Positions 24,908 to 36,712 of a stretch of 38,364 bases of DNA are shown here, one piece after another. Location of the stretch: IMG/VR virus record IMGVR_UViG_3300027826_000006; one strand, 5' to 3'. The notes beneath the pieces were generated by a model that saw nothing but the letters and a program-made list of their open reading frames with translations, had not been told where the DNA came from and ran no database searches. Position 1 is the stretch's first letter, and every line of letters begins with the position of its first letter. A program made the translations under genes and the position numbers. The DNA comes from a virus.

Positions 24908-25491
24908 AGAAGTTACTAGCCCCAATTCTTTTGTGTGTCATGCTGAGTACCGGTTGCTCTACTTCATGGCTCTCGACCTTCGATAGCTATCTGTCGATTA
25001 TTGGCCCGGTGCTTACTCAGATTCTCGATATCGTTGCACTAGCGCAGGGCCAGCCACCCAACGCACAGTTGGCTGCCAAGATCGCCGCCGATCAGGCAGC
25101 GGCAAACAGCTTGGCCGCTTCAGTCAATTCGGCTACTGCGCAGAACGTGACCGGCGCATGCGCAGCATTCAATCTGGGCGTACAGACTTTTGCCGATGAT
25201 CTGACTCAGATTGAAACCATCGTGCAGATCAATAACCTGAATACGCAGGGCGAGATTGCGGCAGGCGTGGGAATCGCGCAGGCTGCCATGGCTGAAATCG
25301 AAGCCCCGATTGCTGCTTGCCAAGCCGCTCCTTCCCAGAAGGCTGCGCTACAAGTGCTGAAGTCGTACAGCTACAAATTGAAGGGTGGCGAGGATGTAGC
25401 GCGCCGCTTCAACGCTGTAGTGGATTCCAAGCACCACGTGCATTACCACTCCAAGTGGGTGCGCATTCTCAGCTTAGGGCATGAGCAGTGA
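24904..25491 (+). CDS. lipoprotein (lipobox LSTGC)
   Basis: MKKLLAPILLCVMLSTGCS signal peptide with Cys; Ala/Gln-rich helical body; ATGA coupling. Confidence 0.55.
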   Translation: MKKLLAPILLCVMLSTGCSTSWLSTFDSYLSIIGPVLTQILDIVALAQGQPPNAQLAAKIAADQAAANSLAASVNSATAQNVTGACAAFNLGVQTFADDLTQIETIVQINNLNTQGEIAAGVGIAQAAMAEIEAPIAACQAAPSQKAALQVLKSYSYKLKGGEDVARRFNAVVDSKHHVHYHSKWVRILSLGHEQ

Positions 25492-26267
25492 TCGCACGCG
25501 CCTACGGTCGTAAAACCCCGGCTCCGCTTCCGTCTCATCGGATGTTGAGCCGGGACAAAACTGCGACCACTCCGGTGGCTGTTGATTTGCGCAAGCACTG
25601 CGGGCCAGTTAAAAACCAGCAGAGTTTGGGCAGTTGCACCGGCCACACATTCTCATCTTCCATAGAGTGGATTTGCCGCGCCTACCTCAACAAGCAACCC
25701 GTGCTCTCCCCGCTCTTTTTTTATGCTGAGGAACTGATCGCGGACGGCAACTTCCCGAACGATGATGGGTCTGACGGCGTGACCGGCTGCAATGTCGCTG
25801 TCACGAAAGGTTGCTGCGAGGATTCGCTTTACCCGGACGCTTCACAGCAGATCAAACAGCCCACGCCAGAGATGTTAGCGAATGCGCTTGAATATCGCAT
25901 GGGTGCCTATCATGGCTTGACTGGTTCGGCGGTTGCGATCAGCGTGCTGGGCGACCCCACGCCATGGCCAGTGGAAATCGGTTTCATGGTATGCGCGTCA
26001 TTTGAAGGCGACCAGCTTGCCGAAACTGGAATCTATAATCCCGGCCCCAGCGAGTCCATCATCGGCGGCCATGAAGTGCTGGCCGTTGGCTATGATGTGG
26101 CTCCGACGCCAGTTCTGCGACCAGCAGAGTGCCCACCAGCATTTCTGATACAGAATAGCTGGGGCGAGGATTGGGCGCTAAAGGGCTATTTCTGGATGCC
26201 ACTCTCCGTGGCCGATGCTGCCGAGTCTGACCTAAAAATTGTCCACTCCGGCCATCCGTGGGTATAA
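25488..26267 (+). CDS. papain-like (C1 family) cysteine peptidase
   Basis: CGPVKNQQSLGSCTGH (Gln oxyanion plus catalytic Cys), GGHEV (catalytic His), NSWGEDWALKGYFWM (Asn-Ser-Trp-Gly). Confidence 0.6.
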   Translation: MIARAYGRKTPAPLPSHRMLSRDKTATTPVAVDLRKHCGPVKNQQSLGSCTGHTFSSSIEWICRAYLNKQPVLSPLFFYAEELIADGNFPNDDGSDGVTGCNVAVTKGCCEDSLYPDASQQIKQPTPEMLANALEYRMGAYHGLTGSAVAISVLGDPTPWPVEIGFMVCASFEGDQLAETGIYNPGPSESIIGGHEVLAVGYDVAPTPVLRPAECPPAFLIQNSWGEDWALKGYFWMPLSVADAAESDLKIVHSGHPWV

Positions 26268-28003: not shown

Positions 28004-28035
28004 AGCCCCGCGATGAAAGCGGGGCTTTTGTTTTG
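28004..28035 (+). terminator. rho-independent terminator
   Basis: AGCCCCGC-gatgaaa-GCGGGGCT plus TTTTGTTTT. Confidence 0.65.
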
Positions 28036-28039
28036 ATGT

Positions 28040-28116
28040 TCCAGTCTAGCTTAATTCGGTAGAGCATCGTCCTGTTAAGACGGGTGGTCTCGGTTCGAGT
28101 CCGAGGGCTGGAGCCA
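28040..28116 (+). tRNA. tRNA-Asn (GTT)
   Basis: Manual cloverleaf: acceptor TCCAGTC/GGCTGGA, anticodon loop CTGTTAA, T-arm CTCGG-TTCGAGT-CCGAG, CCA encoded. Confidence 0.8.
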
Positions 28117-28126
28117 ATTTTAGAGT

Positions 28127-28200
28127 GCCAGATTCGGCCAACGGTAGGCCGGTTGCCTCATGAACAACCTATTCCAGTTCGACTCTGGAATCTGGCACCA
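28127..28200 (+). tRNA. tRNA-Met (CAT), elongator-like
   Basis: Acceptor GCCAGAT/ATCTGGC, loop CTCATGA closed by a C.A mismatch (G37), T-arm TCCAG-TTCGACT-CTGGA, CCA. Confidence 0.6.
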
Positions 28201-28238
28201 AAATTCGTTATTCGCGAATAGCGAACGTGGAGCGAGCC

Positions 28239-28460
28239 ATGTATGACGAACATCCAGCAACGGACAAGGGTTGGCAGCCGCTCGATTTGGACGCGCTGAT
28301 CGAAAAGCAATTGGCTGAATTGAGTGAACAGGCGAAAGAATGGACGCAGCGAATGCGCAACCTACGAAGCGAGTTGCGCCAGATTGGGCGTTAAAAAATT
28401 TAGGTGGATCGCACTGGGCGGCGGGCGAGTCTTATAAACTTGTGATTGCCCTAGATTAGG
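28239..28460 (+). CDS. possible small coiled-coil protein between tRNAs (MYDEHPATDKGWQPLDLDALIEKQLAELSEQAKEWTQRMRNLRSEL...)
   Basis: GGAG 7 nt upstream of the ATG; by my hand translation the frame stays open to 28460 and overlaps the tRNA-like element, yet it is absent from the supplied ORF track, so it is doubtful. Confidence 0.25.
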
Positions 28461-28497
28461 GCGCACGGGATGGTTCGATTCCATCATCCACTACCAA
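28404..28497 (+). tRNA. aberrant tRNA-like element (94 nt): canonical acceptor, T-arm and CCA; candidate anticodon loop CTTATAA (TAT); 15-nt extra hairpin
   Basis: Acceptor GGTGGAT/ATCCACT-A-CCA, T-arm GATGG-TTCGATT-CCATC, stem CGAGT/ACTTG around CTTATAA, hairpin GCCCT-agatt-AGGGC; the D-arm is not canonical. Confidence 0.35.
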
Positions 28498-28498
28498 G

Positions 28499-28576
28499 TG
28501 TTGAGGGGCGGATGGGTAGCGAGCGGTTCAACGGGTAATGCCGGAACGGACGAGGCTTTGGCTGCCCCTCAACTAC
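28499..28576. repeat. 10-bp perfect inverted repeat GTTGAGGGGC ... GCCCCTCAAC enclosing 58 nt
   Basis: Direct inspection; lies between the tRNA-like element and tRNA-Val. Confidence 0.5.
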
Positions 28577-28580
28577 ATGT

Positions 28581-28657
28581 GCGCGGTTAGCTCAACCCGG
28601 TAGAGCCGTTGCCCTACAAGCAACTTGTTGGGAGTTCAAATCTCTCACCGCGCACCA
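28581..28657 (+). tRNA. tRNA-Val (TAC) with C33
   Basis: Acceptor GCGCGGT/ACCGCGC, D-stem GCTC/GAGC, anticodon stem GTTGC/GCAAC, loop CCTACAA, T-arm GGGAG-TTCAAAT-CTCTC, CCA. Confidence 0.7.
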
Positions 28658-29276
28658 ATTTCAGTAAGCCCATGTCCAATTCTTGGTGGTGATTGGGGCA
28701 TAGGCCAATTAGATTCTCCTTGGCGTTGACCACGCTCAATAGGGTGGTTTTGGGAAACGTGGATACCGCCTTGATGTGGCAGCATTCAACATACGTTGAA
28801 TATCCACAGATAGAACAAGCCGCCAACAAGCCAGCGGCAGCGGCTATTTGTTTTGCATGTTGCCTGACGCTTGTATGGTAAACATTGCGACTGCCAGACC
28901 GGAACAAGTCGTTCAAGGTTTTGTTCGGTGCATTGATTCTGTGATTCGCAAGTAAGCAGTTCTTGCAGTATTTGCGGCTGATCCTAATCGGGCCACCACA
29001 ATCTGCACATCTGCCAGTTGGCTGGAGACGAGTTCGCGGTCTCTGATTGTTGGCTGATGCAGCGCATGCCCGCGAACAGTATTTTGGATTCGCCGTTTCG
29101 TTGCTGCAATGGTGGCATCGCCTAACCACTGGCGGAAATCCAGCGCAACAACTGTTGCAGCGCACGCTTTTATGGTTTCGCCGCAAATAACGTTTGTGAT
29201 TTGCGGTTGAACGAAGGAATGGCGATTTGCAAATTGAACATTGGAGTTGAACTGTTTCAGGCATTGGGGCTATCAT
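28614..29276 (-). CDS. HNH endonuclease with N-terminal Cys-rich zinc-finger region
   Basis: CSICGYSTYVECCHIKAVS ... NLIGLCPNHHQELD HNH signature; its C-terminal 44 nt overlap the 3' end of tRNA-Val. Confidence 0.55.
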   Translation of the reverse strand: MIAPMPETVQLQCSICKSPFLRSTANHKRYLRRNHKSVRCNSCCAGFPPVVRRCHHCSNETANPKYCSRACAASANNQRPRTRLQPTGRCADCGGPIRISRKYCKNCLLANHRINAPNKTLNDLFRSGSRNVYHTSVRQHAKQIAAAAGLLAACSICGYSTYVECCHIKAVSTFPKTTLLSVVNAKENLIGLCPNHHQELDMGLLKLVRGERFELPTSCL

Positions 29277-29344
29277 ATTAGATGTGAGAGATGAAACGCC
29301 ATGCCGATTCCATCACGCGGTACCATTTTAGGAGAATGAAAATG

Positions 29345-29536
29345 ATTCAGTACGATCCGCCCAGCGGTTGGAGATACGGCTTCCCGAAAGAGTACAAGCC
29401 GCAGCCGGGAGAAACGCTTGAGCAAACGCTTCTCCGCGATGGCTATCCGCAGAAAGAAATTGATGCTGGCATGGCAAAATATTGCCGCTTCTTGGGGCCG
29501 AAAGAAGAACTGAATGCGTTGTTTTCTGGAACTTAA
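29345..29536 (+). CDS. hypothetical small protein (63 aa)
   Basis: Second ATG after AGGAGA RBS (MIQYDPPSGWRYGFPKEY...). Confidence 0.4.
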   Translation: MQYDPPSGWRYGFPKEYKPQPGETLEQTLLRDGYPQKEIDAGMAKYCRFLGPKEELNALFSGT

Positions 29537-29752
29537 ATGAAAAAGAAAAGACAGCTTCGCAATTTGGGTGTGTGCGCAAGGTGCGGCGACCCAATTATGA
29601 GTGTCCACGAAGATCGCGAGCACATTGTGGGCACCAGCGCGAAAGATGCCAGAAAGTTGTGCAGTGCGTGCATTTCGCGCTACCATGACAAAAAACTTTG
29701 CATCTGCTCACATTGCAGTGGGCAAGAAAAAGATTATGCCGGTGTCGTCTAA
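29537..29752 (+). CDS. small zinc-ribbon protein (CARCG ... CSACISRYH ... CICSHCSG)
   Basis: ATG directly after the upstream TAA; its 3' end overlaps the next tRNA by about 15 nt. Confidence 0.4.
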   Translation: MKKKRQLRNLGVCARCGDPIMSVHEDREHIVGTSAKDARKLCSACISRYHDKKLCICSHCSGQEKDYAGVV

Positions 29753-29811
29753 TGGCAAGGCCCGCGCCCGATTAGCGCGAGACGTTGGTTCGATTCCAGC
29801 CACCGGTACCA
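29738..29811 (+). tRNA. tRNA-Ile-like (GAT) with atypical loop CCGATTA (C33, U37)
   Basis: Acceptor GCCGGTG/CACCGGT, D-stem GTCT/AGGC, anticodon stem CGCGC/GCGCG, T-arm GTTGG-TTCGATT-CCAGC, CCA. Confidence 0.55.
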
Positions 29812-29899
29812 TTTTTATGATTGAAACATTCATCAGAGACGGCACAACCTACCGCATCCTGAGTGGCGAAGATGCGGAGCGTGCAATGGAACGCAATAT

Positions 29900-29976
29900 G
29901 CGCGATTGGCAGAGACGGCCTATGCACTTGACTCTTAATCAAGACGACGCTGGTTCGATTCCAGCATCGCGCACCA
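29900..29976 (+). tRNA. tRNA-Lys (CTT)
   Basis: Acceptor GCGCGAT/ATCGCGC, anticodon stem CTTGA/TCAAG, loop CTCTTAA, T-arm GCTGG-TTCGATT-CCAGC, CCA. Confidence 0.8.
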
Positions 29977-29978
29977 AT

Positions 29979-30059
29979 GGGGGTATGGCAGAGTCAGGAC
30001 TATTGCATCCGCCTTTTAAGCGGAACATAACGTAGGTTCAAATCCTACTGCCCCCACCA
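29979..30059 (+). tRNA. tRNA-Lys (TTT) with 11-nt D-loop and 7-nt variable loop
   Basis: Acceptor GGGGGTA/TGCCCCC, anticodon stem TCCGC/GCGGA, loop CTTTTAA, T-arm GTAGG-TTCAAAT-CCTAC, CCA. Confidence 0.65.
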
Positions 30060-30073
30060 AATTTGAGGAAACC

Positions 30074-30409
30074 ATGAAAAACATAAAACTGAAAATAAAG
30101 AAACAGGCTTGCGAAGTCATGCTGGTTGAGTTGACCGGCGAATACGAAGATGGCGTGAAATTCGTCCGCGAATTGAACTTCAGCGGCAATGCCACGTCAA
30201 CCGTGCTGTACGGGGCGCGATTGGTGCTGGACGCGCTTGCGGAATTGGAGGCCCGCGAATACCAAGATAAGTTTCAGGCGGCCTCTCAAGCATTCGCTAA
30301 ACTGAAGTCGCTCACTAAGGCAGTTCCGGCTGGAGAGTGGACACCGGAGTACCGGGCGCTGGCAGAGGCAATCCACAACATGGGCCGCGAAGTGTTCTAC
30401 GTGGAGTAA
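30074..30409 (+). CDS. hypothetical protein (111 aa)
   Basis: RBS TGAGGAAACC-ATG. Confidence 0.5.
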   Translation: MKNIKLKIKKQACEVMLVELTGEYEDGVKFVRELNFSGNATSTVLYGARLVLDALAELEAREYQDKFQAASQAFAKLKSLTKAVPAGEWTPEYRALAEAIHNMGREVFYVE

Positions 30410-30412
30410 GTT

Positions 30413-30919
30413 ATGAAAACACCAGCAGTCGTTTTAGTGAATCCGAAATATCCGCACAATTTCGCGGCGGCAATACGCGCGTGTTCATGCTTCGGCGTAG
30501 AAGAATTGCTCTACACCGGCGACCGCATGGACATCAGGCCCAACGAGCGCTTGCCGCGCGAGGAGCGGATGAAGGGGTACGCGGCGGTTAGCTGGCGGCG
30601 CGAAGATCGCCCACTTGGCCTCCTTGGCACACCGGTTTGCGTAGAAGTCATGGAGAACAGTGAGCCGCTGACTACATTTGAGCATCCACTTGATGCCATC
30701 TATGTTTTTGGGCCAGAGGATGGCGGGGTGCCGCAAACATTCCGGCAGCACTGTCACCGCTTCGTCCACATTCCGGCGCATCACTGCCTGAATCTGGCTG
30801 CGGCAATCAATGTGGTGCTGTCGCACCGAATGATGCAGTTGAATCCAACGCTGCCACTGAGTGAAGTTCTTCACGAAACGCGCGGAGAATTAGCAGTGGC
30901 AGGGTGGGATGGCAAGTAG
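30413..30919 (+). CDS. SpoU/TrmH-family (SPOUT) RNA 2'-O-methyltransferase, TrmL-like size
   Basis: VVLVNPKYPHNFAAAIRACSCFGVEELLYTG, IYVFGPEDGGVPQ, HIPAHHCLNLAAAINVVL match the SpoU motifs. Confidence 0.6.
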   Translation: MKTPAVVLVNPKYPHNFAAAIRACSCFGVEELLYTGDRMDIRPNERLPREERMKGYAAVSWRREDRPLGLLGTPVCVEVMENSEPLTTFEHPLDAIYVFGPEDGGVPQTFRQHCHRFVHIPAHHCLNLAAAINVVLSHRMMQLNPTLPLSEVLHETRGELAVAGWDGK

Positions 30920-30993
30920 GGCCGCTTCATCCAACAGGAAAGGATCAGCACTTCTAATGCTGAAACGGCAGTTCGAGCCTGCCAGCGGCTTCC
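30919..30993 (+). tRNA. tRNA-Arg (TCT)
   Basis: Acceptor GGCCGCT/AGCGGCT, anticodon stem CAGCA/TGCTG, loop CTTCTAA, T-arm GGCAG-TTCGAGC-CTGCC, CCA. Confidence 0.7.
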
Positions 30994-31128
30994 ATTATAA
31001 TGTTCTTGGCCGGGACGGTTTCACCGGGCATCGCGTATAAAGGGAACAGGCGATGATGCTGCGACCTGCCGCTGGCGGTTGCGCTTTTCACTGCCGCCGA
31101 AAGAGCGTGGAATGTTCCCGGCCTTAAC

Positions 31129-31216
31129 GGGGGCGTGGTCTGAATTGGATTAGGCACTGCGCTACGAACGCAGATCGCGAAAGCGGATGCAGGTTCGAGT
31201 CCTGCCGCCCCTACCA
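31129..31216 (+). tRNA. tRNA-Arg (ACG) on a type-II (long variable arm) body
   Basis: Acceptor GGGGGCG/CGCCCCT, 3-bp D-stem with 12-nt D-loop, anticodon stem CTGCG/CGCAG, loop CTACGAA, 15-nt variable arm ATCGCGAAAGCGGAT, T-arm GCAGG-TTCGAGT-CCTGC, A73, CCA. Confidence 0.6.
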
Positions 31217-31222
31217 TATTTT

Positions 31223-31297
31223 GCCCGCGTAGTGTAAAGCAGAACACGGCTTCCTCCTAAGAAGCAAATCCGGGTTGAATTCCCGGCGTGGGTACCA
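31223..31297 (+). tRNA. tRNA-Arg (CCT)
   Basis: Acceptor GCCCGCG/CGTGGGT (two G.U), D-stem GTGT/ACAC, anticodon stem GCTTC/GAAGC, loop CTCCTAA, T-arm CCGGG-TTGAATT-CCCGG, CCA. Confidence 0.7.
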
Positions 31298-31299
31298 TT

Positions 31300-31375
31300 G
31301 GGCCGCTGGGGTAACGCACGAACCCGGCAGATTCCGAATCTGCAAATCCGAGTTGGATTCTCGGGCGGCCTACCA
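31300..31375 (+). tRNA. tRNA-Arg (CCG)
   Basis: Acceptor GGGCCGC/GCGGCCT, D-stem GGGT/ACCC, anticodon stem GCAGA/TCTGC, loop TTCCGAA, T-arm CCGAG-TTGGATT-CTCGG, CCA. Confidence 0.7.
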
Positions 31376-31575
31376 TTTTTCGCTTGACAAGTTTCGCCCA
31401 TTACCCCATACTCCTTACATGATTCGTTTCACCCATAGCGATTGTCCAACACCGCAGGCCGCGACCGGAACGTGGCAGGGCGAGTTTGAACGTATTGCGG
31501 GGTAAGGCGAACTTGTAGGTTCCTTGTAAGCCCCGCCTCAAAAAGCGGGGCTTAATCATTTCTGGGAGAGAGAAA

Positions 31576-31824
31576 ATGATTGATGCAAAGGTTGGGGATG
31601 TGGTTACACGCAATTTGGCTGGAGCGCTCATTGAACTAGAAGTCACCGCCGTGGATGACAAATTCATCTATTGCGGCCCGAAGGGGGTGGGCTGGAAATT
31701 TGACAAATGGACTGGCGCGGAGGTCGATGAGGAACTTGGCTGGGGGCCGCCGCCAAAAATCAGTGGCTCCTTTATCGTCCTAAACAATGCGCCGTATGGC
31801 AAAGTGATGGGCAAGATAGCTTGA
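31576..31824 (+). CDS. hypothetical small protein (82 aa)
   Basis: RBS GGGAGAGAGAAA-ATG; the stop abuts the next tRNA. Confidence 0.5.
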   Translation: MIDAKVGDVVTRNLAGALIELEVTAVDDKFIYCGPKGVGWKFDKWTGAEVDEELGWGPPPKISGSFIVLNNAPYGKVMGKIA

Positions 31825-31898
31825 GCCGGATTCGGCTAGTGGCAGGCCACGTGGTTCTCATCCACAAAACGTGGGTTCGATTCCCGCATCCGGTACCA
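31825..31898 (+). tRNA. tRNA-Glu (CTC)
   Basis: Acceptor GCCGGAT/ATCCGGT, D-stem GGCT/GGCC, loop TTCTCAT, T-arm GTGGG-TTCGATT-CCCGC, CCA. Confidence 0.6.
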
Positions 31899-31899
31899 T

Positions 31900-31979
31900 G
31901 CCGTAGAGCGCAAAGTGGTCGAGCGGCCTGTCTTTCAAGCAGGACATTCTAGCCGGTTCGAGTCCGGTCTACGGCACCA
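31900..31979 (+). tRNA. tRNA-Glu (TTC), 80 nt, A8 and 8-nt variable region
   Basis: Acceptor GCCGTAG/CTACGGC, anticodon stem CCTGT/GCAGG, loop CTTTCAA, T-arm GCCGG-TTCGAGT-CCGGT, CCA. Confidence 0.65.
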
Positions 31980-32164
31980 AATTTTATGATTACATTTTTC
32001 GGAACGCAGATTGAAGTGACAAGTGAACGGCAATGCCAGAGAAGCAGCGCCGATCATCGGGCGCTTGTGCATGAAGCACGGCTTGACAGGCAAAAGACAG
32101 GCCACAACGTGGACGAATCGTATGTGATCTGCGGGCACTGCGTCAAGGCGCTGAGTTTGAAAAT

Positions 32165-32238
32165 TTGAGTGTGGCGGGTTCGGTTAGTGGAAAGCCGCTG
32201 GCCTTTGGCACCAGCTTCGGAGGTTCGATTCCTTCACC
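32165..32238 (+). tRNA. tRNA-Gln (TTG), tentative
   Basis: Acceptor GGCGGGT/ACCCGCT, D-stem GGTT/AGCC, loop CTTTGGC with a C.A closing mismatch, T-arm GGAGG-TTCGATT-CCTTC, G73, CCA. Confidence 0.5.
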
Positions 32239-32239
32239 C

Positions 32240-32313
32240 GCTGCCATAGCGAGTTCGGTTAGTGGCAGGCCCGATGCCTCTGGAGCATCCAGCGGTGGTT
32301 CGATTCCACCACT
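32240..32313 (+). tRNA. tRNA-Gln (CTG)
   Basis: Acceptor AGCGAGT/ACTCGCT, anticodon stem GATGC/GCATC, loop CTCTGGA, T-arm GGTGG-TTCGATT-CCACC, CCA. Confidence 0.6.
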
Positions 32314-32321
32314 CGCTTCCA

Positions 32322-32398
32322 TATTTTACGGGGTGTAAGACGAAGCGGACGAGTCACCTGCCTGTCACGCAGGAGTAAGCCGGTTCAAGTCCGGTACA
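32322..32398 (+). tRNA. tRNA-Asp (GTC)
   Basis: Acceptor GGGGTGT/ACATCCC, anticodon stem CCTGC/GCAGG, loop CTGTCAC, T-arm GCCGG-TTCAAGT-CCGGT, G73, CCA. Confidence 0.7.
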
Positions 32399-32419
32399 TC
32401 CCGCCATAAGTTTGGGGCG

Positions 32420-32442
32420 ATCCACCCTAAAGGTGGGTTTTT
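32420..32442 (+). terminator. rho-independent terminator
   Basis: CCACC-ctaaa-GGTGG hairpin followed by GTTTTTCC. Confidence 0.55.
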
Positions 32443-32568
32443 CCGAGGATGAATTTCCTTGCCCAGTAATGGGCCGATATGTTCGGTTATCGCCCCTCCA
32501 CATCGGAGAACGATGAGCATCTTTGAGGATATAGACGAAATGAAATGGATTGAATGGTTCAACAAAAT

Positions 32569-32645
32569 GGGAGCGTCGGTTAATCAGCGCAAACCATCGG
32601 ACTCCAAACCCGAGACTCCCGGTTCAAATCCGGGCGCTCCCGCCA
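32569..32645 (+). tRNA. tRNA-Trp (CCA)
   Basis: Acceptor GGGAGCG/CGCTCCC, D-stem GGTT/AACC, loop CTCCAAA, T-arm CCCGG-TTCAAAT-CCGGG, G73, CCA. Confidence 0.75.
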
Positions 32646-32707
32646 TCTCTCGGGATGGCTTTTGTCCCAATTGTGGACTTTCATACCCGAACGATTTTGA
32701 CGGCAAC

Positions 32708-32884
32708 ATGGCAGTCGAATGCGACTGTGGCCATAAGTTTACTGTCGTTGGTAGATACGCCATCTCTTGTGCTGCTTGCGGTAAGGAATTGAGCAAGGAA
32801 ACCAACTCCGAGGAATGCCCGGATTCACTGTATTGGCATCGCAAGCACACCGCGATTGTGCTGAATAGGGTTTGTGTTGAGTAA
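32708..32884 (+). CDS. small zinc-ribbon protein (CDCGH ... CAACG); possible remnant of a longer ORF interrupted by tRNA-Trp
   Basis: First in-frame ATG after tRNA-Trp; an upstream in-frame CPNCG motif has no start codon. Confidence 0.3.
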   Translation: MAVECDCGHKFTVVGRYAISCAACGKELSKETNSEECPDSLYWHRKHTAIVLNRVCVE

Positions 32885-32895
32885 AGGGAAAAAGA

Positions 32896-32970
32896 GCGGG
32901 GTTGGCCGACCGGTAAGGCAGTTGGCTTCCACCCAACGATCAGCGGGTTCGATTCCCGCACCCCGCTCCA
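32896..32970 (+). tRNA. tRNA-Gly (TCC)
   Basis: Acceptor GCGGGGT/ACCCCGC, anticodon stem GTTGG/CCAAC, loop CTTCCAC, T-arm GCGGG-TTCGATT-CCCGC, CCA. Confidence 0.75.
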
Positions 32971-33097
32971 AACAACAAGATTTGTTCGGGGGCTACAAAA
33001 GCTGGAGCCTGCTTGATCTGTGGAAAGAGATGGGCGCGATTCGCCGGAGATGTTACGCGAAGCGCATGGAGTGGGAACGGAAGGGGCAATTGATTGT

Positions 33098-33172
33098 GCT
33101 GGGTTCGTCTAGCGGCAAGGATACTGCATTGCCAATGCAGTGACACCAGTTCGAGTCTGGTACCCCGCACCA
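33098..33172 (+). tRNA. tRNA-Gly (GCC)
   Basis: Acceptor GCTGGGT/ACCCCGC (3-70 mismatch), anticodon stem CTGCA/TGCAG, loop TTGCCAA, T-arm ACCAG-TTCGAGT-CTGGT, CCA. Confidence 0.65.
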
Positions 33173-33178
33173 AGTTTT

Positions 33179-33253
33179 GTGCCGTTGACCGAGTGGCTTA
33201 GGTGTATGGCTGCAACCCATACCACGGGTGTTCGATTCACCCACGGCACTCCA
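33179..33253 (+). tRNA. tRNA-Cys (GCA)
   Basis: Acceptor GTGCCGT/ACGGCAC, anticodon stem TATGG/CCATA, loop CTGCAAC, T-arm GGGTG-TTCGATT-CACCC, U73, CCA. Confidence 0.8.
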
Positions 33254-33263
33254 AATTTTTACC

Positions 33264-33644
33264 ATGGCACACTTTGACGAGCACTGTAGAGACTGCGAAC
33301 GATTACTGGGCGACCGACATGAAAAGGTCAACCGGTGGATTGATGAGTTGTTCGCGAAGCATGGCCCAGAACATCGGCGCTATCGGCATCACGGCGGTGG
33401 CGTGCGCGAGGCCCAGAAGAAGTTTGGCGGCGACGCAGCCAAGGCGGCCATCGTACATATCGTCCGCGATTGTGGGCGCGTACCGCTGGCTATGGAGTAT
33501 GACAAGCGCACGCTCTTTGAGTTCGGCGAGAATATAGTAGTCGCCCCGGAGCACTTGCGCTATGACGGGCTGGATGAAACGGCGCGGCAGAAGTTCGACA
33601 AGATTGTGAAAGCGGAGTTTGAAAGATTTGGGTTGCCAGCATAG
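33264..33644 (+). CDS. hypothetical His/Cys-rich protein (HCRDCERLLG ... HRRYRHHGGG)
   Basis: ATG at 33264 (MAHFDEH...); no clear SD; its 3' end overlaps the start of the tRNA-Thr(CGT)-like gene. Confidence 0.45.
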   Translation: MAHFDEHCRDCERLLGDRHEKVNRWIDELFAKHGPEHRRYRHHGGGVREAQKKFGGDAAKAAIVHIVRDCGRVPLAMEYDKRTLFEFGENIVVAPEHLRYDGLDETARQKFDKIVKAEFERFGLPA

Positions 33645-33709
33645 CTCATGAAGTAGAGTGCGTGATTCGTAACCACGCGAACCGGATGCGAGCGCCGGTG
33701 CTGGCTCCA
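33635..33709 (+). tRNA. tRNA-Thr (CGT)-like, degenerate T-loop
   Basis: Acceptor GCCAGCA/TGCTGGC, D-stem GCTC/GAGT, loop TTCGTAA (C.A closing mismatch), 4-bp T-stem with 9-nt loop, U73, CCA; its 3' 15 nt match tRNA-Thr(GGT) in 13 of 15 positions. Confidence 0.45.
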
Positions 33710-33783
33710 GTCAGCGTAGCTCAGTGGCAGAGCAATGGTTCGGTAAACCATCGACTCGGTTTCGATTACCGACGCTGGCTCCA
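33710..33783 (+). tRNA. tRNA-Thr (GGT) with C33
   Basis: Acceptor GTCAGCG/CGCTGGC, D-stem GCTC/GAGC, anticodon stem ATGGT/ACCAT, loop TCGGTAA, T-arm TCGGT-TTCGATT-ACCGA, CCA. Confidence 0.7.
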
Positions 33784-33788
33784 TTTTG

Positions 33789-33865
33789 GCAGGCGTGGCT
33801 CAGTCAGCGACAGCACGTGCCTTGTAAGCACGCAATCGGGAGCGCACATCTCCCCGCCTGCTCCA
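33789..33865 (+). tRNA. tRNA-Thr (TGT) with non-canonical T-loop CGCACAT
   Basis: Acceptor GCAGGCG/CGCCTGC, anticodon stem CGTGC/GCACG, loop CTTGTAA, T-stem GGGAG/CTCCC, CCA. Confidence 0.65.
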
Positions 33866-33872
33866 GTTTTAT

Positions 33873-33947
33873 GGTGTCTATCGTTCAATAGTAGGACGGC
33901 GGATTGTGGCTCCGCCAACGTCGGGGCAGAACCGACTAGACACCCCA
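33873..33947 (+). tRNA. tRNA-His (GTG) with encoded G-1 and C73; non-canonical T-loop GGCAGAA
   Basis: G-1 at 33873 pairs with C73; acceptor GTGTCTA/TAGACAC, anticodon stem GCGGA/TCCGC, loop TTGTGGC, T-stem GTCGG/CCGAC, CCA. Confidence 0.75.
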
Positions 33948-33958
33948 AAAGTTTAAGC

Positions 33959-34336
33959 ATGGGGAAACTAGCGAAGCGCGACTATAACAGGAGACGGCGG
34001 GAAAGAAACAAGGCAGTTGCCGATAAATACGCTGGAGATTGTTGCCATTTCTGTTCATATGAAGCGCGGCTAGTTGTTCATCGCAAAGACGGGATGGAAC
34101 ATAAAAAGTTCCACCTAATGAGCGAACGTGAGTTTTTGGCCGAACTAAAAAGTGGCCAATATGTGAGAGTTTGTTTCCGTTGCCACAAGGCAGTCCATTG
34201 GTGCATGACGTATTTAAGACTGAACTGGAATCAGATAACGGAAATGTGGGCCGGTAGCATAACGGGAATGCGCTCGGTTTGCACCCGAGGAGATGGGGTT
34301 CGACTCCCCCCGTGTCCACCAGATTTGGCCGTTTAA
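33959..34336 (+). CDS. HNH endonuclease (CCHFC ... HRKDG ... N ... CFRCHKAVH)
   Basis: ATG at 33959 just after tRNA-His; HNH motif; the ORF reads through the tRNA-Ala-like element to a stop at 34334-34336. Confidence 0.5.
   Translation: MGKLAKRDYNRRRRERNKAVADKYAGDCCHFCSYEARLVVHRKDGMEHKKFHLMSEREFLAELKSGQYVRVCFRCHKAVHWCMTYLRLNWNQITEMWAGSITGMRSVCTRGDGVRLPPCPPDLAV
34248..34321 (+). tRNA. tRNA-Ala (TGC)-like with imperfect acceptor stem (possible pseudo-tRNA)
   Basis: D-arm GCAT-aacggga-ATGC, anticodon stem CTCGG/CCGAG, loop TTTGCAC, T-arm TGGGG-TTCGACT-CCCCC, CCA; the acceptor GGGCCGG vs CGTGTCC pairs at only 5 of 7. Confidence 0.4.
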
Positions 34337-34403
34337 CATTGATAGTCAATGTGCTCCCCTGAAGAGGGAGAAAATCTGGCGCAATACCAGAAGCGGCCAC
34401 CAT

Positions 34404-34479
34404 CGGAGCGTAGCCTAGTGGACGAGGCACTTGTTTCGGGAACAAGTTCACAGGAGTTCGATTCTCCTCGCTCCGACCA
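34404..34479 (+). tRNA. tRNA-Pro (CGG)
   Basis: Acceptor CGGAGCG/CGCTCCG, D-stem GCCT/AGGC, anticodon stem CTTGT/ACAAG, loop TTCGGGA, T-arm AGGAG-TTCGATT-CTCCT, CCA. Confidence 0.8.
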
Positions 34480-34485
34480 CTTTTT

Positions 34486-34559
34486 CGGGATGTAGCTGGA
34501 AGGTCTAGCCCGTGCCTTGGGCGCACGTGACGGGGGTTCGATTCCCCCTATCCCGACCA
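34486..34559 (+). tRNA. tRNA-Pro (TGG)
   Basis: Acceptor CGGGATG/TATCCCG, anticodon stem CGTGC/GCACG, loop CTTGGGC, T-arm GGGGG-TTCGATT-CCCCC, CCA. Confidence 0.8.
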
Positions 34560-34575
34560 TTTATAATGCGCGAAT

Positions 34576-35083
34576 GGTTATTCGCGTAACATTAAGCCAC
34601 AGCCAACTGCATTACGCATACCAGACTGGTCTGTATCGCCACATGCGATCACTGGAGAAGGGCCACAGGCCAGACTGGCAGGACGGAACTGAGGTTTGTA
34701 ACCACATGCACGGCGCGGCCTGTGAATGCGCGTGGCATAAATGGTTAGGCATCTTTTGGCACGCTCCTGTCGATGAGTTCAAGGCGCAAGACGCAGTGGG
34801 CGGCATCCAAATTAGATCATCGCCACAAAGAAAGCCATTCTGGAAAGTAAAACCAAGCGACCCCGACGACCAAACGGCTGTCTTTTTCGCATCAGGCGAA
34901 TTGACGCACTATATCGTCGGATACATACCCATCATCGAAGCCAAACGCTTTCCCTTGGTCGATCCGGGCGGCAGAAACGTGTACTGCCATCAGGTTAAAC
35001 GCGAACAAATGTACACCGACTTCGCCAGTTTGCGCGAAACCGTACTAGCCAAGCATAAAATGATGGAATCCGTGTCCATTTAA
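34576..35083 (+). CDS. hypothetical His/Cys-containing protein (169 aa)
   Basis: First ATG after tRNA-Pro, embedded in the inverted repeat CGCGAAT-ggtt-ATTCGCG; no clear SD. Confidence 0.4.
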
Positions 35084-35113
35084 TGGTAATCTGATCCTTG
35101 GAGGGAATTACAG

Positions 35114-35494
35114 ATGAGAACATTGCTGGTGCAGGGCGAGAAGGTATTCAAAATCGAAATCCCCGACGATGCCAAAGTGACGTTCGGCCCGTGGAGTCCG
35201 CCGAATAAAAACGGGCAGTACGGCGACTACAAGGCTGTCGGCACGCTGCGCATCTATCGCGGAACCAAAGACAACATCATTGCCTGCTTTTCTGGCGTGG
35301 GCGGCTTCCGCGATATCACCATGGGCTATATGGAACAGGTTGCCAAAGAAGAAGGCGCAACCATGTGGAAAAGCGATCAGAAGGGCTATGTGCGCGAGGA
35401 GAAAGTAGCCGTGGCCAATGAGTGGGTGAATCCGCAACTCCCGGCTGCACCAGCGCCGAAGCCCAGAAAGAAGACCAAGAAAAATGGTGATTGA
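35114..35494 (+). CDS. hypothetical protein (126 aa), Lys-rich C-terminus
   Basis: RBS GGAGGGAATTACAG-ATG. Confidence 0.5.
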   Translation: MRTLLVQGEKVFKIEIPDDAKVTFGPWSPPNKNGQYGDYKAVGTLRIYRGTKDNIIACFSGVGGFRDITMGYMEQVAKEEGATMWKSDQKGYVREEKVAVANEWVNPQLPAAPAPKPRKKTKKNGD

Positions 35495-35702
35495 AATCGT
35501 TTTGCGCTCCAACGGAATGGCGAATGCCGAACCGCCGACCAAGTTCACTATCAAGAATGTGGACACGGTTGAGTTCGATGTCGATCATCCCGACGTTCTG
35601 TGTGTCCACGATATGGACGGCTGTTCCGTCGCCGACTTCCGCGATTGGGCATACTGGCGCAAGGTCGGCGAAGATCACACCGGCGAGACAGAAATCTCTT
35701 GA
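35484..35702 (+). CDS. hypothetical acidic protein (72 aa)
   Basis: ORF overlapping the upstream stop. Confidence 0.4.
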   Translation: MVIEIVLRSNGMANAEPPTKFTIKNVDTVEFDVDHPDVLCVHDMDGCSVADFRDWAYWRKVGEDHTGETEIS

Positions 35703-35728
35703 CAGAGTTTCGCGCGTAGTGCTTTAAT
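35699..35728 (+). promoter_or_regulatory. sigma70-like promoter TTGACA-N18-TTTAAT ahead of the second tRNA block
   Basis: Consensus -35; A/T-rich -10 at the right spacing. Confidence 0.4.
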
Positions 35729-35734
35729 CAGAAT

Positions 35735-35812
35735 CGCGGGGATTGAGCTACGTTGCGCTCGGTGGTCTCATAAGCCATCCCGTATTTGGTTAAACTCCAA
35801 ACTCCGCAACCA
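35735..35812 (+). tRNA. initiator-like tRNA-fMet (CAT): C1.A72 mismatch; acceptor CGCGGGG/CTCCGCA-A-CCA matches the E. coli fMet pattern
   Basis: D-stem GAGC/GCTC, anticodon stem with G.U pairs, loop CTCATAA, T-arm TTTGG-TTAAACT-CCAAA (non-canonical loop), A73, CCA. Confidence 0.55.
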
Positions 35813-35988
35813 TTTGATTTTGGGGCCAGCCCGTCGCATTAGCGTAGTGGCGAGTGGAGGCGTTTAAGGCGTTAATCGCCTCCCGGCCCCAACAGAAAAA
35901 ATCCAATGACTATCCTACGATCATTGCGACTCTCGAACATCAGTCGATCCCGACTGAGCAGTTATTTATCCCCCTGTAAAAATTTAGT

Positions 35989-36065
35989 GCGGCGCTAGGC
36001 AAACTGGAAAAGCCGGTCGATTCAAAATCCACTGTTTTGGGGTTCGACTCCCCAGCGCCGTACCA
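35989..36065 (+). tRNA. tRNA-Leu (CAA) on a type-I body (5-nt variable loop)
   Basis: Acceptor GCGGCGC/GCGCCGT, 3-bp D-stem with 11-nt D-loop, anticodon stem GTCGA/TCCAC (one mismatch), loop TTCAAAA, T-arm TGGGG-TTCGACT-CCCCA, A73, CCA. Confidence 0.55.
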
Positions 36066-36079
36066 AATGTTTGCAGGTT

Positions 36080-36156
36080 GCCAGAATGCGCGAACTGGAA
36101 TAGCGGGCCGCCTTAAGAGCGGCTGTTTGTGGGTTCGACTCCCACTTCTGGCACCA
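36080..36156 (+). tRNA. tRNA-Leu (TAA) on a type-I body (5-nt variable loop)
   Basis: Acceptor GCCAGAA/TTCTGGC, 3-bp D-stem CGC/GCG with 11-nt D-loop, anticodon stem GCCGC/GCGGC, loop CTTAAGA, T-arm GTGGG-TTCGACT-CCCAC, A73, CCA. Confidence 0.65.
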
Positions 36157-36159
36157 AAC

Positions 36160-36250
36160 GGAAGCGTAGGGAAATTGGTTAACCCAGCAGTTCGCTAAAC
36201 TGCCAAGGCCCAAAAAGGCCGTCCGCGTTCGAGTCGCGGCGCTTCCGCCA
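36160..36250 (+). tRNA. tRNA-Ser (GCT), type II, with C33
   Basis: Acceptor GGAAGCG/CGCTTCC, anticodon stem GCAGT/ACTGC, loop TCGCTAA, 19-nt variable arm, T-arm CCGCG-TTCGAGT-CGCGG, G73, CCA. Confidence 0.75.
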
Positions 36251-36251
36251 C

Positions 36252-36339
36252 GGAGAGCACGGGGATATGGACTCCCGAACCCGTTTGAAGCGGGTCGCGC
36301 CTGAAAGGGCTGGCCGTTCGAGTCGGCTGCTCTCCTCCA
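36252..36339 (+). tRNA. tRNA-Ser (TGA), type II
   Basis: Acceptor GGAGAGC/GCTCTCC, anticodon stem ACCCG/CGGGT, loop TTTGAAG, 16-nt variable arm, T-arm GGCCG-TTCGAGT-CGGCT, CCA. Confidence 0.75.
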
Positions 36340-36351
36340 GTTTGGAAGTAC

Positions 36352-36437
36352 GGTGGAATGGCTGAACGGTAAAAGCACCTGCTTGGAAAGCAGGAGTTCC
36401 CGCAAGGGGCGCGTGCGTTCGACTCGCACTTCCACCG
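36352..36437 (+). tRNA. tRNA-Ser (GGA), type II (3' tail GCCC, CCA not encoded)
   Basis: Acceptor GGTGGAA/TTCCACC, anticodon stem CCTGC/GCAGG, loop TTGGAAA, 18-nt variable arm, T-arm GTGCG-TTCGACT-CGCAC, G73. Confidence 0.7.
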
Positions 36438-36439
36438 CC

Positions 36440-36531
36440 CGAGGAAAGCGCCGATGGTCGGCAACTACGCTCGAAACGTGGGCCTACGTCGCGAATGCGG
36501 CATGACGGTTCGATTCCGTTTTCCTCGCCCA
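36440..36531 (+). tRNA. tRNA-Ser (CGA), type II
   Basis: Acceptor CGAGGAA/TTCCTCG, anticodon stem CTACG/CGTGG, loop CTCGAAA, 22-nt variable arm, T-arm GACGG-TTCGATT-CCGTT, CCA. Confidence 0.7.
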
Positions 36532-36536
36532 GTTTT

Positions 36537-36624
36537 GCACGTTTGGCAGAGCGGCAATTGCGTCTGACTGTAGATCAGATGCCCCATAGGGGCTACGAGG
36601 GTTCGAGTCCTTCAGCGTGCACCA
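36537..36624 (+). tRNA. tRNA-Tyr (GTA), type II
   Basis: Acceptor GCACGTT/AGCGTGC, anticodon stem TCTGA/TCAGA, loop CTGTAGA, 16-nt variable arm GCCCC-ata-GGGGC, T-arm GAGGG-TTCGAGT-CCTTC, A73, CCA. Confidence 0.8.
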
Positions 36625-36629
36625 GTTGT

Positions 36630-36712
36630 GCCGGTATGGTGGAATTGGCAGACACACCTGTCTTAGGAACAGGCGCTTCGGCGTGGGGGTTCAAGTCCCT
36701 CTACCGGTACCA
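36630..36712 (+). tRNA. tRNA-Leu (TAG) with 11-nt variable arm
   Basis: Acceptor GCCGGTA/TACCGGT, 3-bp D-stem with 11-nt D-loop, anticodon stem CCTGT/ACAGG, loop CTTAGGA, T-arm GGGGG-TTCAAGT-CCCTC, A73, CCA. Confidence 0.75.

Follow-up and report, generated by a model that had tools for sequence, protein, structure and literature searches.

The 38,364-nt window analysed here, which is the whole stretch of DNA in IMG/VR record IMGVR_UViG_3300027826_000006, carries a dense island of transfer RNA (tRNA) genes at positions 28040-36712. The question raised by this locus is whether the island amounts to a full decoding set, and which role such a set would play in a phage. The island is very likely the tRNA array of an uncultivated phage, and thus of an already known kind of element. 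We consider it rather likely that this co-oriented array provides a self-sufficient decoding set, processed from polycistronic transcripts and charged by the host.

Thirty-two tRNA genes were called by ARAGORN, all on the plus strand within 28040-36712, and none was called in the other 30 kb of the window. The Rfam tRNA model RF00005, at its gathering threshold of 29 bits, gave 31 matches in a scan of the window. Three of these had no default ARAGORN call: Thr CGU (33635-33706), Thr UGU (33789-33862), and His GUG (33874-33944). Together, the two programs gave 35 tRNA genes. With a Phe-like and an initiator-like candidate added on the basis of folding and synteny, the island holds 37 genes with 36 anticodons; this probably makes the set complete, with all 20 amino acids and an initiator-like tRNA represented. 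A sequence-only reading of this DNA had counted about 36 plus-strand tRNA or tRNA-like genes in 8.7 kb, and both totals bear this out.

When all Rfam scans were considered, 32 of the 37 genes passed the RF00005 threshold. The five below it were tRNA(UAU) (28403), Ser UGA (36252), Ser CGA (36440), and the Phe-like (34327) and initiator-like (35735) genes, which rest on ARAGORN, folding, or both. The terminal CCA was encoded in 36 of the 37 genes, with Ser GGA (G73 followed by CCC) as the exception, and every anticodon except CAU occurred only once. The density was about 4.3 tRNA genes per kb (37 in 8,673 bp), and the spacers within tight runs were 0-14 nt long and often U-rich. Because the spacers are so short, the tRNA-sized gaps were conspicuous. 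Rfam E-value scans of the gaps gave no further tRNA match, and their other Rfam matches (Plastid-ycf2 antisense to tRNAs, microRNA families, and RAGATH-21) were set aside as noise. ARAGORN at a relaxed threshold (-ps80) made 61 calls, mostly evident false positives across the window. Those at 33635 and 35736 had independent support and were kept.

Gene identity, anticodon, order, and spacing are read directly from the DNA as follows; unless stated otherwise, each gene was found by both ARAGORN and RF00005. The array opens with tRNA-Asn GUU (28040-28116; 55.8 bits) and an elongator-type tRNA-Met CAU (28127-28200; 51.1 bits). A 94-nt tRNA(UAU) with a long variable arm (28403-28496) was called by ARAGORN; it had no RF00005 match and scored 24.5 bits with the tRNA-Sec model. 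Val UAC (28581-28657; 60.8 bits), Ile GAU (29738-29811; 48 bits), Lys CUU (29900-29976; 62.3 bits), and an 81-nt Lys UUU with an enlarged D loop (29979-30059; 59.9 bits) follow. The Arg run contains UCU (30920-30994; 44.5 bits), an 88-nt ACG gene (31129-31216; 44.6 bits), CCU (31223-31297), and CCG (31300-31375). Next are Glu CUC (31825-31898), an 80-nt Glu UUC (31900-31979), Gln UUG (32173-32246), and Gln CUG (32248-32321), which is 76% identical to Gln UUG and likely a duplicate. Asp GUC (32330-32406; 34.8 bits), Trp CCA (32569-32645), Gly UCC (32896-32970), Gly GCC (33098-33172), and Cys GCA (33179-33253) complete the first part.

The second part begins with Thr CGU (33635-33709; 37.6 bits), which ARAGORN called only at the relaxed threshold. 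Thr GGU (33710-33783) starts directly after the CCA of Thr CGU, with a spacer of 0 nt, and is followed by Thr UGU (33789-33865; Rfam, 49 bits) and His GUG (33873-33947; Rfam, 41.6 bits). Ala UGC (34248-34321), the Phe(GAA)-like gene (34327-34402), Pro CGG (34404-34479), and Pro UGG (34486-34559) form the next block. The initiator-like tRNA(CAU) (35735-35812) precedes Leu CAA (35989-36065) and Leu UAA (36080-36156). The Ser run comprises GCU (36160-36250; 48.4 bits), UGA (36252-36339; ARAGORN, no RF00005 match), GGA (36351-36440; 61.4 bits, without an encoded CCA), and CGA (36440-36531; ARAGORN, 30.4 bits with the tRNA-Sec model), the last two overlapping by 1 nt. Tyr GUA (36537-36624) and a class II Leu UAG with a normal variable arm (36630-36712) end the array. 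The isoacceptor runs listed in the sequence-only reading (Arg UCU/ACG/CCU/CCG, Ser GCU/UGA/GGA/CGA, Thr CGU/GGU/UGU, Glu CUC/UUC, Gln UUG/CUG, Gly UCC/GCC, Pro CGG/UGG, Lys CUU/UUU, and Leu CAA/UAA, with Leu UAG last) were all exact in anticodon and order.

Two genes that are required for completeness escaped the standard programs. The Phe(GAA)-like gene lies within the 82 nt separating Ala UGC from Pro CGG. Its minimum free energy (MFE) fold was a cloverleaf with a 7-bp acceptor stem, the anticodon loop CUGAAGA (GAA), A73, and CCA; the z value was -4.13, and none of 200 shuffles was as stable. Both ARAGORN and Rfam missed this gene because it has a 7-bp hairpin with a 3-nt loop instead of a D arm, and the T loop CGCAAUA. 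At the equivalent Ala-Phe-Pro position, ARAGORN called a tRNA-Phe(GAA) in the related loci L016/L017 and L222. The anticodon arms of L016 (CUCGC-CUGAAGA-GCGAG) and the window (CUCCC-CUGAAGA-GGGAG) are one compensatory pair apart. The sequence-only reading had listed Phe GAA, Ala GGC, Val GAC, and Leu CAG/GAG as absent anticodons. All of these are indeed absent except Phe GAA, which is probably present as a non-canonical gene.

The initiator-like tRNA(CAU) was called by ARAGORN at the relaxed threshold, starting at 35736, and had no RF00005 match. Its MFE fold was a cloverleaf with z = -2.3. A C1xA72 mismatch together with A73 is the hallmark of bacterial initiator tRNA, and the list of initiator features used here is that of E. 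coli tRNA-fMet. The window gene has the ends CGCGGGG...CUCCGCAACCA (cGCGGGG...CUCCGC-A-ACCA) and shows the C1xA72 mismatch, A73, and the anticodon CAU. The first seven bases (CGCGGGG) and the last seven (GCAACCA) are those of E. coli tRNA-fMet. Its anticodon loop is CUCAUAA and its T loop UUAAACU. The anticodon stem contains only two of the three G-C pairs (29-31:39-41), and the loop-closing pair is U.G. The gene is labelled initiator-like because it has two such pairs rather than three and is not detected by RF00005. In L017, ARAGORN called a tRNA-Met(cat) with ends identical to those of the window gene. Thus, two members of the set are invisible to ARAGORN at its default and to the Rfam tRNA model, and the tRNA(UAU) family described below is invisible to Rfam, so that counts of missing phage tRNAs can be artefacts.

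The order of the genes was compared to chance and to other arrays. Fourteen of the 16 possible same-amino-acid adjacencies were realised, and 200,000 shuffles averaged 1.3 and never exceeded 8-9. The realised fraction was 0.875, compared to a median of about 0.25 in a convenience sample of 50 other phage arrays with at least 15 tRNAs each, where only the locus L220 (0.91) was comparable. The description of a near-complete, family-ordered phage-type island holds. The ordering lies far above chance, and the set is probably complete. Such an island had further been called unusual even for large phages. This applies to the ordering and the density, but not to the number, since complete huge-phage genomes encode up to 67 tRNAs (PMC7162821).

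In L220, 21 of the window's anticodons occurred in identical order: Asn, Met, Val UAC, Ile GAU, Lys CUU/UUU, Arg UCU/ACG/CCU/CCG, Glu CUC/UUC, Gln UUG/CUG, Asp, Trp, Gly UCC/GCC, Cys, and Thr CGU/GGU. The L220 array was interrupted by a 10-kb block of open reading frames (ORFs). Positional tRNA orthologs were 53-85% identical, and hardly any other ORF was common to both loci. The family order is an old, inherited trait of the lineage, because it was kept while the orthologs diverged to this extent and the ORFs are barely shared. Anticodon order can therefore stay conserved while tRNA sequences diverge nearly to background similarity. The RNA methyltransferase of the SPOUT superfamily encoded within the array was about 86% identical in L220 over the tblastx match. 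A faster evolution of tRNAs than of proteins was considered for this pair and dropped, as the methyltransferase is no fair yardstick and almost no proteins are in common. The more distant L016/L017 kept the sub-blocks Thr UGU-His-Ala-Phe-Pro, Glu CUC-UUC, Lys CUU-UUU, and Arg CCU-CCG. A megablast search of the island against 50,697 phage records gave no match, and protein searches returned only distant relatives among known phages.

Several neighbours within the window were reciprocal best matches (Gln, 76%; Arg CCU/CCG, 71%; Thr CGU/GGU, 69%; Pro, 65%; Leu CAA/UAA, 65%). Adjacent same-family pairs showed a mean identity of about 0.64, averaged over neighbour identities, compared to a background of 0.56. 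This similarity fits an old tandem duplication followed by anticodon change, and common synthetase identity elements could add to the signal. Old tandem duplications with later anticodon changes are the best account of the family order, which would have been retained as the array was inherited and expressed en bloc.

Three further observations were made in the related arrays. Between Trp and Gly UCC, the tRNA array of L220 contains a 179-aa ORF (L220:18476-19015) that has class II synthetase domains of the HisRS type (PF13393, PF00587). A transfer-messenger RNA gene (L006:809-1159; tag ADDYYTEVALAA ending in a stop) opens the tRNA array of a 248-kb viral contig. One to three CUA tRNAs of the amber-suppressor type, named Pyl by ARAGORN, were found in or near the arrays of L004, L012, L013, L016, L017, L220, L222, and L223. 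Unlike these relatives, the window contains no suppressor tRNA. An alternative genetic code was also considered and rejected; the ORF lengths gave no sign of stop-codon reassignment, and the ORFs appear consistent with the standard code.

Many tRNAs of the island exhibited non-canonical structures. Thr CGU, Thr UGU, His, and the Phe-like and initiator-like genes have altered elbows, with neither a G18G19-type D loop nor a UUCRANY T loop. Thr CGU has the T loop UGCGAGC and a D loop without GG, Thr UGU has the T loop CGCACAU and a non-canonical D loop, and His has G-1 opposite C73 and the T loop GGCAGAA. In all five genes the stems are paired, CCA is present, and the anticodon loops are normal. 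Because the two interacting loops changed jointly, we infer that the elbow takes an alternative form and has not simply decayed at random. Leu CAA and Leu UAA are only 77 nt long, with a variable loop of 4-5 nt in place of the long variable arm of class II tRNA-Leu, a Leu-type 3-bp D stem, and A73. Four short tRNAs with Leu anticodons (77-79 nt) were also found in L004 (4529-4607, 13792-13868, 15050-15217), whereas the Leu tRNAs of L017 are normal (86-88 nt). Arg ACG has acquired a variable-arm hairpin (CGC-GAAA-GCG) not present in its L220 ortholog. For Ser CGA (36440-36531), an 8-bp acceptor stem (CGAGGAAA/UUUCCUCG) with ACGG/CCGU can be drawn, and a 7/5 form with G.U is also possible; its 5-bp D stem with a 3-nt loop resembles allo-tRNAs and tRNA-Sec.

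Deviations also occurred in anticodon loops and at the acceptor end. The Met CAU gene at 28127-28200 has the loop CUCAUGA with G37, closed by C.A. In Ile GAU the loop is CCGAUUA, with C33 in place of U33 and U37 in place of A37; the canonical loop C/UUGAUAA occurs in 51 of 65 Ile(GAU) tRNAs of phages. A tRNA at L219:5543-5614 shares an identical D arm (GTCGTCTAATGGCAAG) with the window's Ile(GAU) and has the loop CUGAUUA. G1.U72 closes the acceptor stem in 10 of the 32 ARAGORN tRNAs (31%; Ile UAU, Ile GAU, all four Arg, Glu CUC, Gln UUG, Leu CAA, and Leu UAG), compared to 14% of 1,510 tRNAs at other phage loci. The mean RF00005 score was about 51 bits in the window and about 60 in L220, averaged over the listed matches.

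Such deviations raise the possibility that much of the array is decaying or non-functional, consisting of relics, of targets for recombination or attachment, or of decoy RNAs. The low RF00005 scores (34.8-62.3 bits), the four or five genes that escape one or both programs, the degenerate D stem of the UAU copy, the lack of CCA in Ser GGA, and an integrase-like gene on the contig would agree with this. However, the odd genes keep their stem pairing, CCA, discriminator base, and intact anticodon loops, and changes in their D loops go along with changes in their T loops, which is not a random pattern. Furthermore, the array has no redundant copies, each anticodon being single except CAU, and its order is conserved in relatives. 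Decay is therefore a very unlikely explanation.

The methyltransferase gene (30413-30919, plus strand) encodes a single-domain, 168-aa RNA 2'-O-methyltransferase of the SpoU/TrmH type, and its stop abuts tRNA-Arg UCU. Its PF00588 match (1.5e-18; 67.7 bits against a cut-off of 29.7) places it in the SPOUT superfamily, and its AlphaFold (AF2) model showed a knotted alpha/beta fold with a mean predicted local distance difference test score of 81. Assignment to a subfamily was attempted with NCBIfam, a PDB sequence search, a profile search, and Foldseek, and none of these singled out one known subfamily. No NCBIfam cut-off was reached (TrmL TIGR00185, 28.4 against 190.6 bits; TrmJ, 33 against 167), and profile matches were marginal (E about 5e-5 to TrmJ and 2e-4 to TrmH). 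Foldseek returned AviRb, TrmL, TrmJ, TrmH, CspR, and RlmB about equally (E about 1e-7), with a probability of 1.00 for AviRb, TrmL, TrmJ, TrmH, and RlmB and a template-modelling score of 0.6-0.7 for TrmL/CspR, TrmJ, and TrmH. Judged by these scores, the protein is a single-domain enzyme of a separate subfamily, and its predicted substrate is most likely tRNA. Many homologs are named TrmL by the Joint Genome Institute, and homologs lie in or beside the tRNA arrays of L004, L006, L220, and L222.

The closest cellular homologs were about 62% identical. One of them belongs to a Ca. Sulfotelmatobacter (Acidobacteriota) metagenome-assembled genome, where its surroundings are those of an ordinary chromosome. 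These homologs are a weak hint that the host lineage is possibly Acidobacteriota. In the Ca. Sulfotelmatobacter locus (L225:6001-9663), the homolog stands two genes from a Ro60/TROVE-domain protein, a type involved in RNA quality control that binds tRNA-like Y RNAs. In another relative (L222/L223:12186-14697), QueC and GTP cyclohydrolase I genes of the 7-deazaguanine pathway lie 2-4 kb downstream of the homolog.

A role in counter-defence is possible, with a chance well short of even. Variant tRNAs would escape tRNA-targeting nucleases or toxins, and the 2'-O-methyltransferase would protect tRNAs, with ribose methylation blocking cleavage that depends on the 2'-OH. A published hypothesis holds that changes in the anticodon loop let phage tRNAs escape VapC, PrrC, and the colicins D and E5 (PMC10264068). 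The many unusual loops and elbows, the excess of G1.U72 (10/32 against 14% elsewhere), the low identity of the L220 positional orthologs despite their kept order, and the methyltransferase embedded in the array are in line with it. On the other hand, the anticodon loops of the island are mostly canonical, and deep ancestry would likewise lead one to expect fast divergence, as almost no ORFs are common to the window and L220.

From the arrangement of the island we infer how it would be transcribed, processed, and charged. The stop of the methyltransferase ORF abuts the 5' end of Arg UCU, and an 82-aa ORF ends next to Glu CUC. The array would be expressed as a few polycistronic precursors that include such ORFs, and the tRNAs would be excised by host RNase P and 3' processing enzymes and charged by host synthetases. 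Phage protein synthesis would then be independent of the abundance and integrity of host tRNAs, for instance when the host is shut off, when its tRNAs are cleaved or are depleted by defence systems, or when host and phage are poorly matched. Terminator-like sites were only mildly enriched.

The window is part of a 102,259-bp metagenomic Logan contig from run SRR5579871 (exact-protein match); a literature search on this run gave no result. The decoding capacity of the set was compared with the genes called on this contig. Fifty-three of the 61 sense codons can be read by ordinary wobble, and they make up 88% of the 10,304 codons in these genes. The remaining eight all end in a pyrimidine (NNY) and belong to the family boxes of Leu, Val, Pro, and Ala; all 61 would be read if U34 tRNAs read whole boxes.

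Codon-usage compensation, to which the sequence-only reading had pointed, would explain the island differently: the phage, with a G+C fraction of 0.61 at third codon positions, would be richer in A/U-ending codons than a GC-richer host, and its tRNAs would top up those in poor supply there. Against an Acidobacteriota reference, the most over-used A-ending codons (CCA, CUA, UCA, CAA, UUA, GUA, AUA, and AGA) were all served by phage tRNAs. The absent species are G34/C34 tRNAs for Leu, Val, Pro, and Ala, which a GC-rich host should supply well. However, the comparison of the anticodon repertoire with codon usage, run against a Ca. Sulfotelmatobacter contig as a guessed proxy of the host, was negative: codons with a cognate tRNA in the island had a median ratio of 0.95, compared to 1.20 for the others (Mann-Whitney p = 0.75). 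tRNAs are also present for codons that the phage under-uses (GGA, ACG, UCG, and CCG), and a complete set with an initiator exceeds what topping-up needs. The set is not aimed at phage-overused codons and therefore fits completeness rather than compensation, which we regard as unlikely to be the main function.

Self-sufficient decoding is preferred over topping-up because the set is probably complete and includes an initiator-like tRNA. Several results weigh against it. A sigma-70 consensus scan of the sequence gave no excess of promoters over shuffles. A search of roughly 52 kb of the contig gave no capsid, terminase, or other structural or packaging gene, and about 10 loci with methyltransferase homologs had no tRNAs nearby. 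The codon test rests on a guessed host reference. Furthermore, part of the set could be impaired, given such strong deviations as the altered D and T loops of five genes, G37 in Met, C33 and U37 in Ile(GAU), and the weak D stem of the UAU tRNA, together with the lower mean RF00005 score.

The lead most worth following is the family of the tRNA(UAU) at 28403-28496, and it can be tested directly because cultured phages carry members. The window copy has the canonical anticodon loop CUUAUAA, a 7/5 architecture (7-bp acceptor and 5-bp T stem), G1.U72, A73, and a weak D stem. Its variable arm forms a GCCC/GGGC stem with the loop UAGAUUA. We defined the family by a CUUAUNA anticodon loop, a variable-arm hairpin whose 7-nt loop has a central GAU, and the 7/5 architecture, and the window copy shows all of these features. 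A 97-nt counterpart was found at L006:5586-5682. A pattern built from these two copies matched at least 80 IMG/VR contigs, and a second pattern, in which the variable-arm motif was left unspecified, matched at least 120. Among the second-pattern matches listed, ARAGORN called 127 tRNA(UAU) genes of 89-99 nt.

Loci matched by the second pattern only were used as 54 unbiased members. In these 54 unique sequences the variable-arm loop was Y-A-G-A-U-N-R, with GAU in 53 and GAC in one. The variable-arm stem covaries: 83.9% of cells paired compared to 50.7% in shuffles, and the score of 0.806 (0.205 in shuffles) was reached by none of 500 shuffles. The inner three pairs were paired in 98-100% of members, with 4-5 pair types each. 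When 33 diverse members were aligned with MAFFT, RNAalifold independently predicted the same hairpin. Variable-arm loops of the Ser, Leu, and Tyr tRNAs encoded on the same contigs served as a control; they were mostly 3-4 nt long, and GAT occurred in 3 of 285. A73 was present in 89 of the 94 CCA-ending members tallied, including the window copy, and position 72 was mostly U.

The pattern was further compared to one genome each of 185,579 bacterial and archaeal species. It matched seven places, and at only one of them did ARAGORN call a tRNA(UAU); the contig there is 330 kb long, carries a tRNA array, and is probably phage. The class is thus phage-restricted and widespread in viral contigs. Members in cultured phages were found in Sinorhizobium phage Phosso, where the gene is annotated as tRNA-Ile(tat), and in Synechococcus phages S-SRM01 and S-SKS1, where it is unannotated. 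Literature searches returned no description of a long-variable-arm phage tRNA(UAU), an absence that is not proof in itself. An identity as an allo-tRNA was considered for the window copy and rejected. The long variable arm is shared, but the acceptor stem has 7 bp and the T stem 5 bp, an eighth acceptor pair would be C.C, and the discriminator is A73 rather than G73 or U73.

The variable-arm loop corresponds to the anticodon loop of tRNA-Ile(GAU) with position 33 changed, and the window's own Ile(GAU) loop, CCGAUUA, has the same motif. IleRS identity rests on G34, A35, and U36, and IleRS handles UAU poorly. Because the variable-arm loop matches the Ile(GAU) anticodon loop and IleRS reads these three bases, we tentatively propose that the variable arm copies the anticodon stem-loop of tRNA-Ile(GAU) and could act as a surrogate identity element. 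It would present G-A-U to the host IleRS, so that the phage could decode AUA as Ile without TilS and lysidine. The GAU might be presented directly, or by an alternative fold that places the variable arm in the position of the anticodon arm. Charging by LeuRS, as in the nematode nev-tRNAs, is a less likely variant. If the proposal is true, it would be a natural relocation of a synthetase recognition signal off the anticodon, with bearing on tRNA identity rules, AUA decoding, and the design of orthogonal tRNAs.

The island contains further features between its tRNA genes. A terminator-like hairpin with a U tract (28004-28026, plus strand; 8-bp stem with seven G-C pairs, tail TTTGTTTT) lies 14 nt upstream of the first tRNA and likely ends the upstream operon. 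Two structured spacers on the plus strand have neither a CCA end nor a recognisable anticodon arm. The first, a tRNA-sized element at 28499-28576, has a 12-bp closing stem (z = -3.6; 2/200 shuffles). The second, at 31008-31123, has an 8-bp closing stem (GGCCGGGA/UCCCGGCC) around about 100 nt and a weak z of -2.2. Processing signals and tRNA relics are among the possible explanations.

One ORF on the minus strand (28614-29276; 216-220 aa) encodes an HNH endonuclease (PF13391, 1.4e-5), and its 3' end overlaps tRNA-Val. The other ORFs are on the plus strand. The ORFs at 30074-30409 (111 aa) and 35114-35494 (126 aa) have no assigned function, and the first matched no family. The 82-aa ORF (31576-31824) ends 1 nt 5' of tRNA-Glu CUC and may encode an RNA-binding protein; its match to PF24203 (phage ProQ C-terminal-like) was below threshold (E = 0.005; 17.9 bits against a cut-off of 27). 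The small ORF between Glu UUC and Gln UUG (31986-32168) keeps its position in L220 at 39% identity.

Outside the island, the contig encodes an exonuclease (phrog_284), PHROG families without a function, a papain-like protease, an integrase-like protein, RusA, PDDEXK, RecT, and NAMPT and phosphoribosyl pyrophosphate (PRPP)-synthetase-like proteins. The papain-family cysteine protease gene (PF00112, 6.4e-11) lies upstream of the island at 25488-26267. The NAMPT and PRPP-synthetase-like pair, which belongs to nicotinamide adenine dinucleotide salvage, lies downstream on the contig (L100:14399-17111). A PHROG search of the large ORFs just beyond the window gave no structural genes. This lack in the 52 kb examined could mean that the contig is a bacterial chromosomal segment, a plasmid, or an integrative element with a tRNA array unit rather than a phage, and the chromosomal homologs of the methyltransferase in Acidobacteriota (about 62% identical) point the same way. 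tRNA array units are known in bacteria (PMC4758250). However, the contig shows dense small ORFs that mostly have no family, PHROG-only families, and no housekeeping genes in the examined part. It also carries recombination genes typical of phages (RecT, RusA, and exonucleases), and the related loci all come from IMG/VR viral contigs or from LR756511, a 595-kb genome deposited as uncultured phage. The contig is very likely of phage origin, and a non-phage origin is highly improbable.

The tRNA regions of T4 and T5 are phage-encoded tRNA gene clusters. Like other phage clusters, the island combines dense same-strand tRNAs with small ORFs, a homing endonuclease type, and a probable tRNA-modification gene, its tRNA sequences depart from canonical host types, and its gene count lies within their range. 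It differs from them in a set that is probably complete on a contig of about 102 kb, in a near-maximal order, and in a high proportion of non-canonical tRNAs. Completeness, conserved family order, and the collection of non-canonical tRNAs are what distinguish it, and a phage of about 100 kb can probably carry a full decoding set. A tRNA array unit was defined as at least 20 tRNA genes at no less than 2 per kb (Tran et al. 2016, PMC4758250), and the island, with 35-37 genes at about 4.3 per kb, exceeds both values. It also shares with these units the synteny between related arrays. However, they are chromosomal, mostly in Firmicutes, and redundant in core isoacceptors (PMC4758250), whereas the island lies on a phage-like contig and shows maximal diversity. 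Its methyltransferase has the same knotted fold and size as TrmL/CspR (position 34), the catalytic domain of TrmJ (position 32), and TrmH (G18), but it falls below all NCBIfam cut-offs and belongs to a separate subfamily.

The tRNA(UAU) family was compared with three known kinds of tRNA. Allo-tRNAs have 8/4 or 9/3 architecture, G73 or U73 for Ser identity, and UAU as their commonest anticodon, and (8/4) tRNA-Ser occurs in phage tRNA clusters (Mukai et al. 2017, PMC5389517). The likeness is one of a long variable arm and of Sec-like traits; for Ser CGA of the window, an 8/4 drawing with a long D stem is possible. In contrast, the UAU family is 7/5, with A73, mostly U72, and a GAU variable-arm loop, and is phage-restricted, whereas allo-tRNAs are acidobacterial or associated with toxin-antitoxin systems. 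The nematode nev-tRNA-Ile(UAU) is eukaryotic, derived from tRNA-Leu, and charged with Leu in vitro (PMC3333845, PMC4300185). It resembles the phage family in combining a class II shape with UAU, against the usual link of long arms to Leu, Ser, and Tyr. The phage family differs in its Ile-like U72-A73 ends and its Ile-anticodon-like variable-arm loop. In Mycoplasma mobile and other bacteria without TilS, a tRNA-Ile2(UAU) of ordinary class I shape reportedly decodes AUA with an adapted IleRS, as Taniguchi et al. are said to have described in 2013. Both kinds would read AUA through an unmodified-type UAU rather than a lysidine-modified CAU, but the phage tRNAs have an extra arm and must rely on a host IleRS that is not adapted to them.

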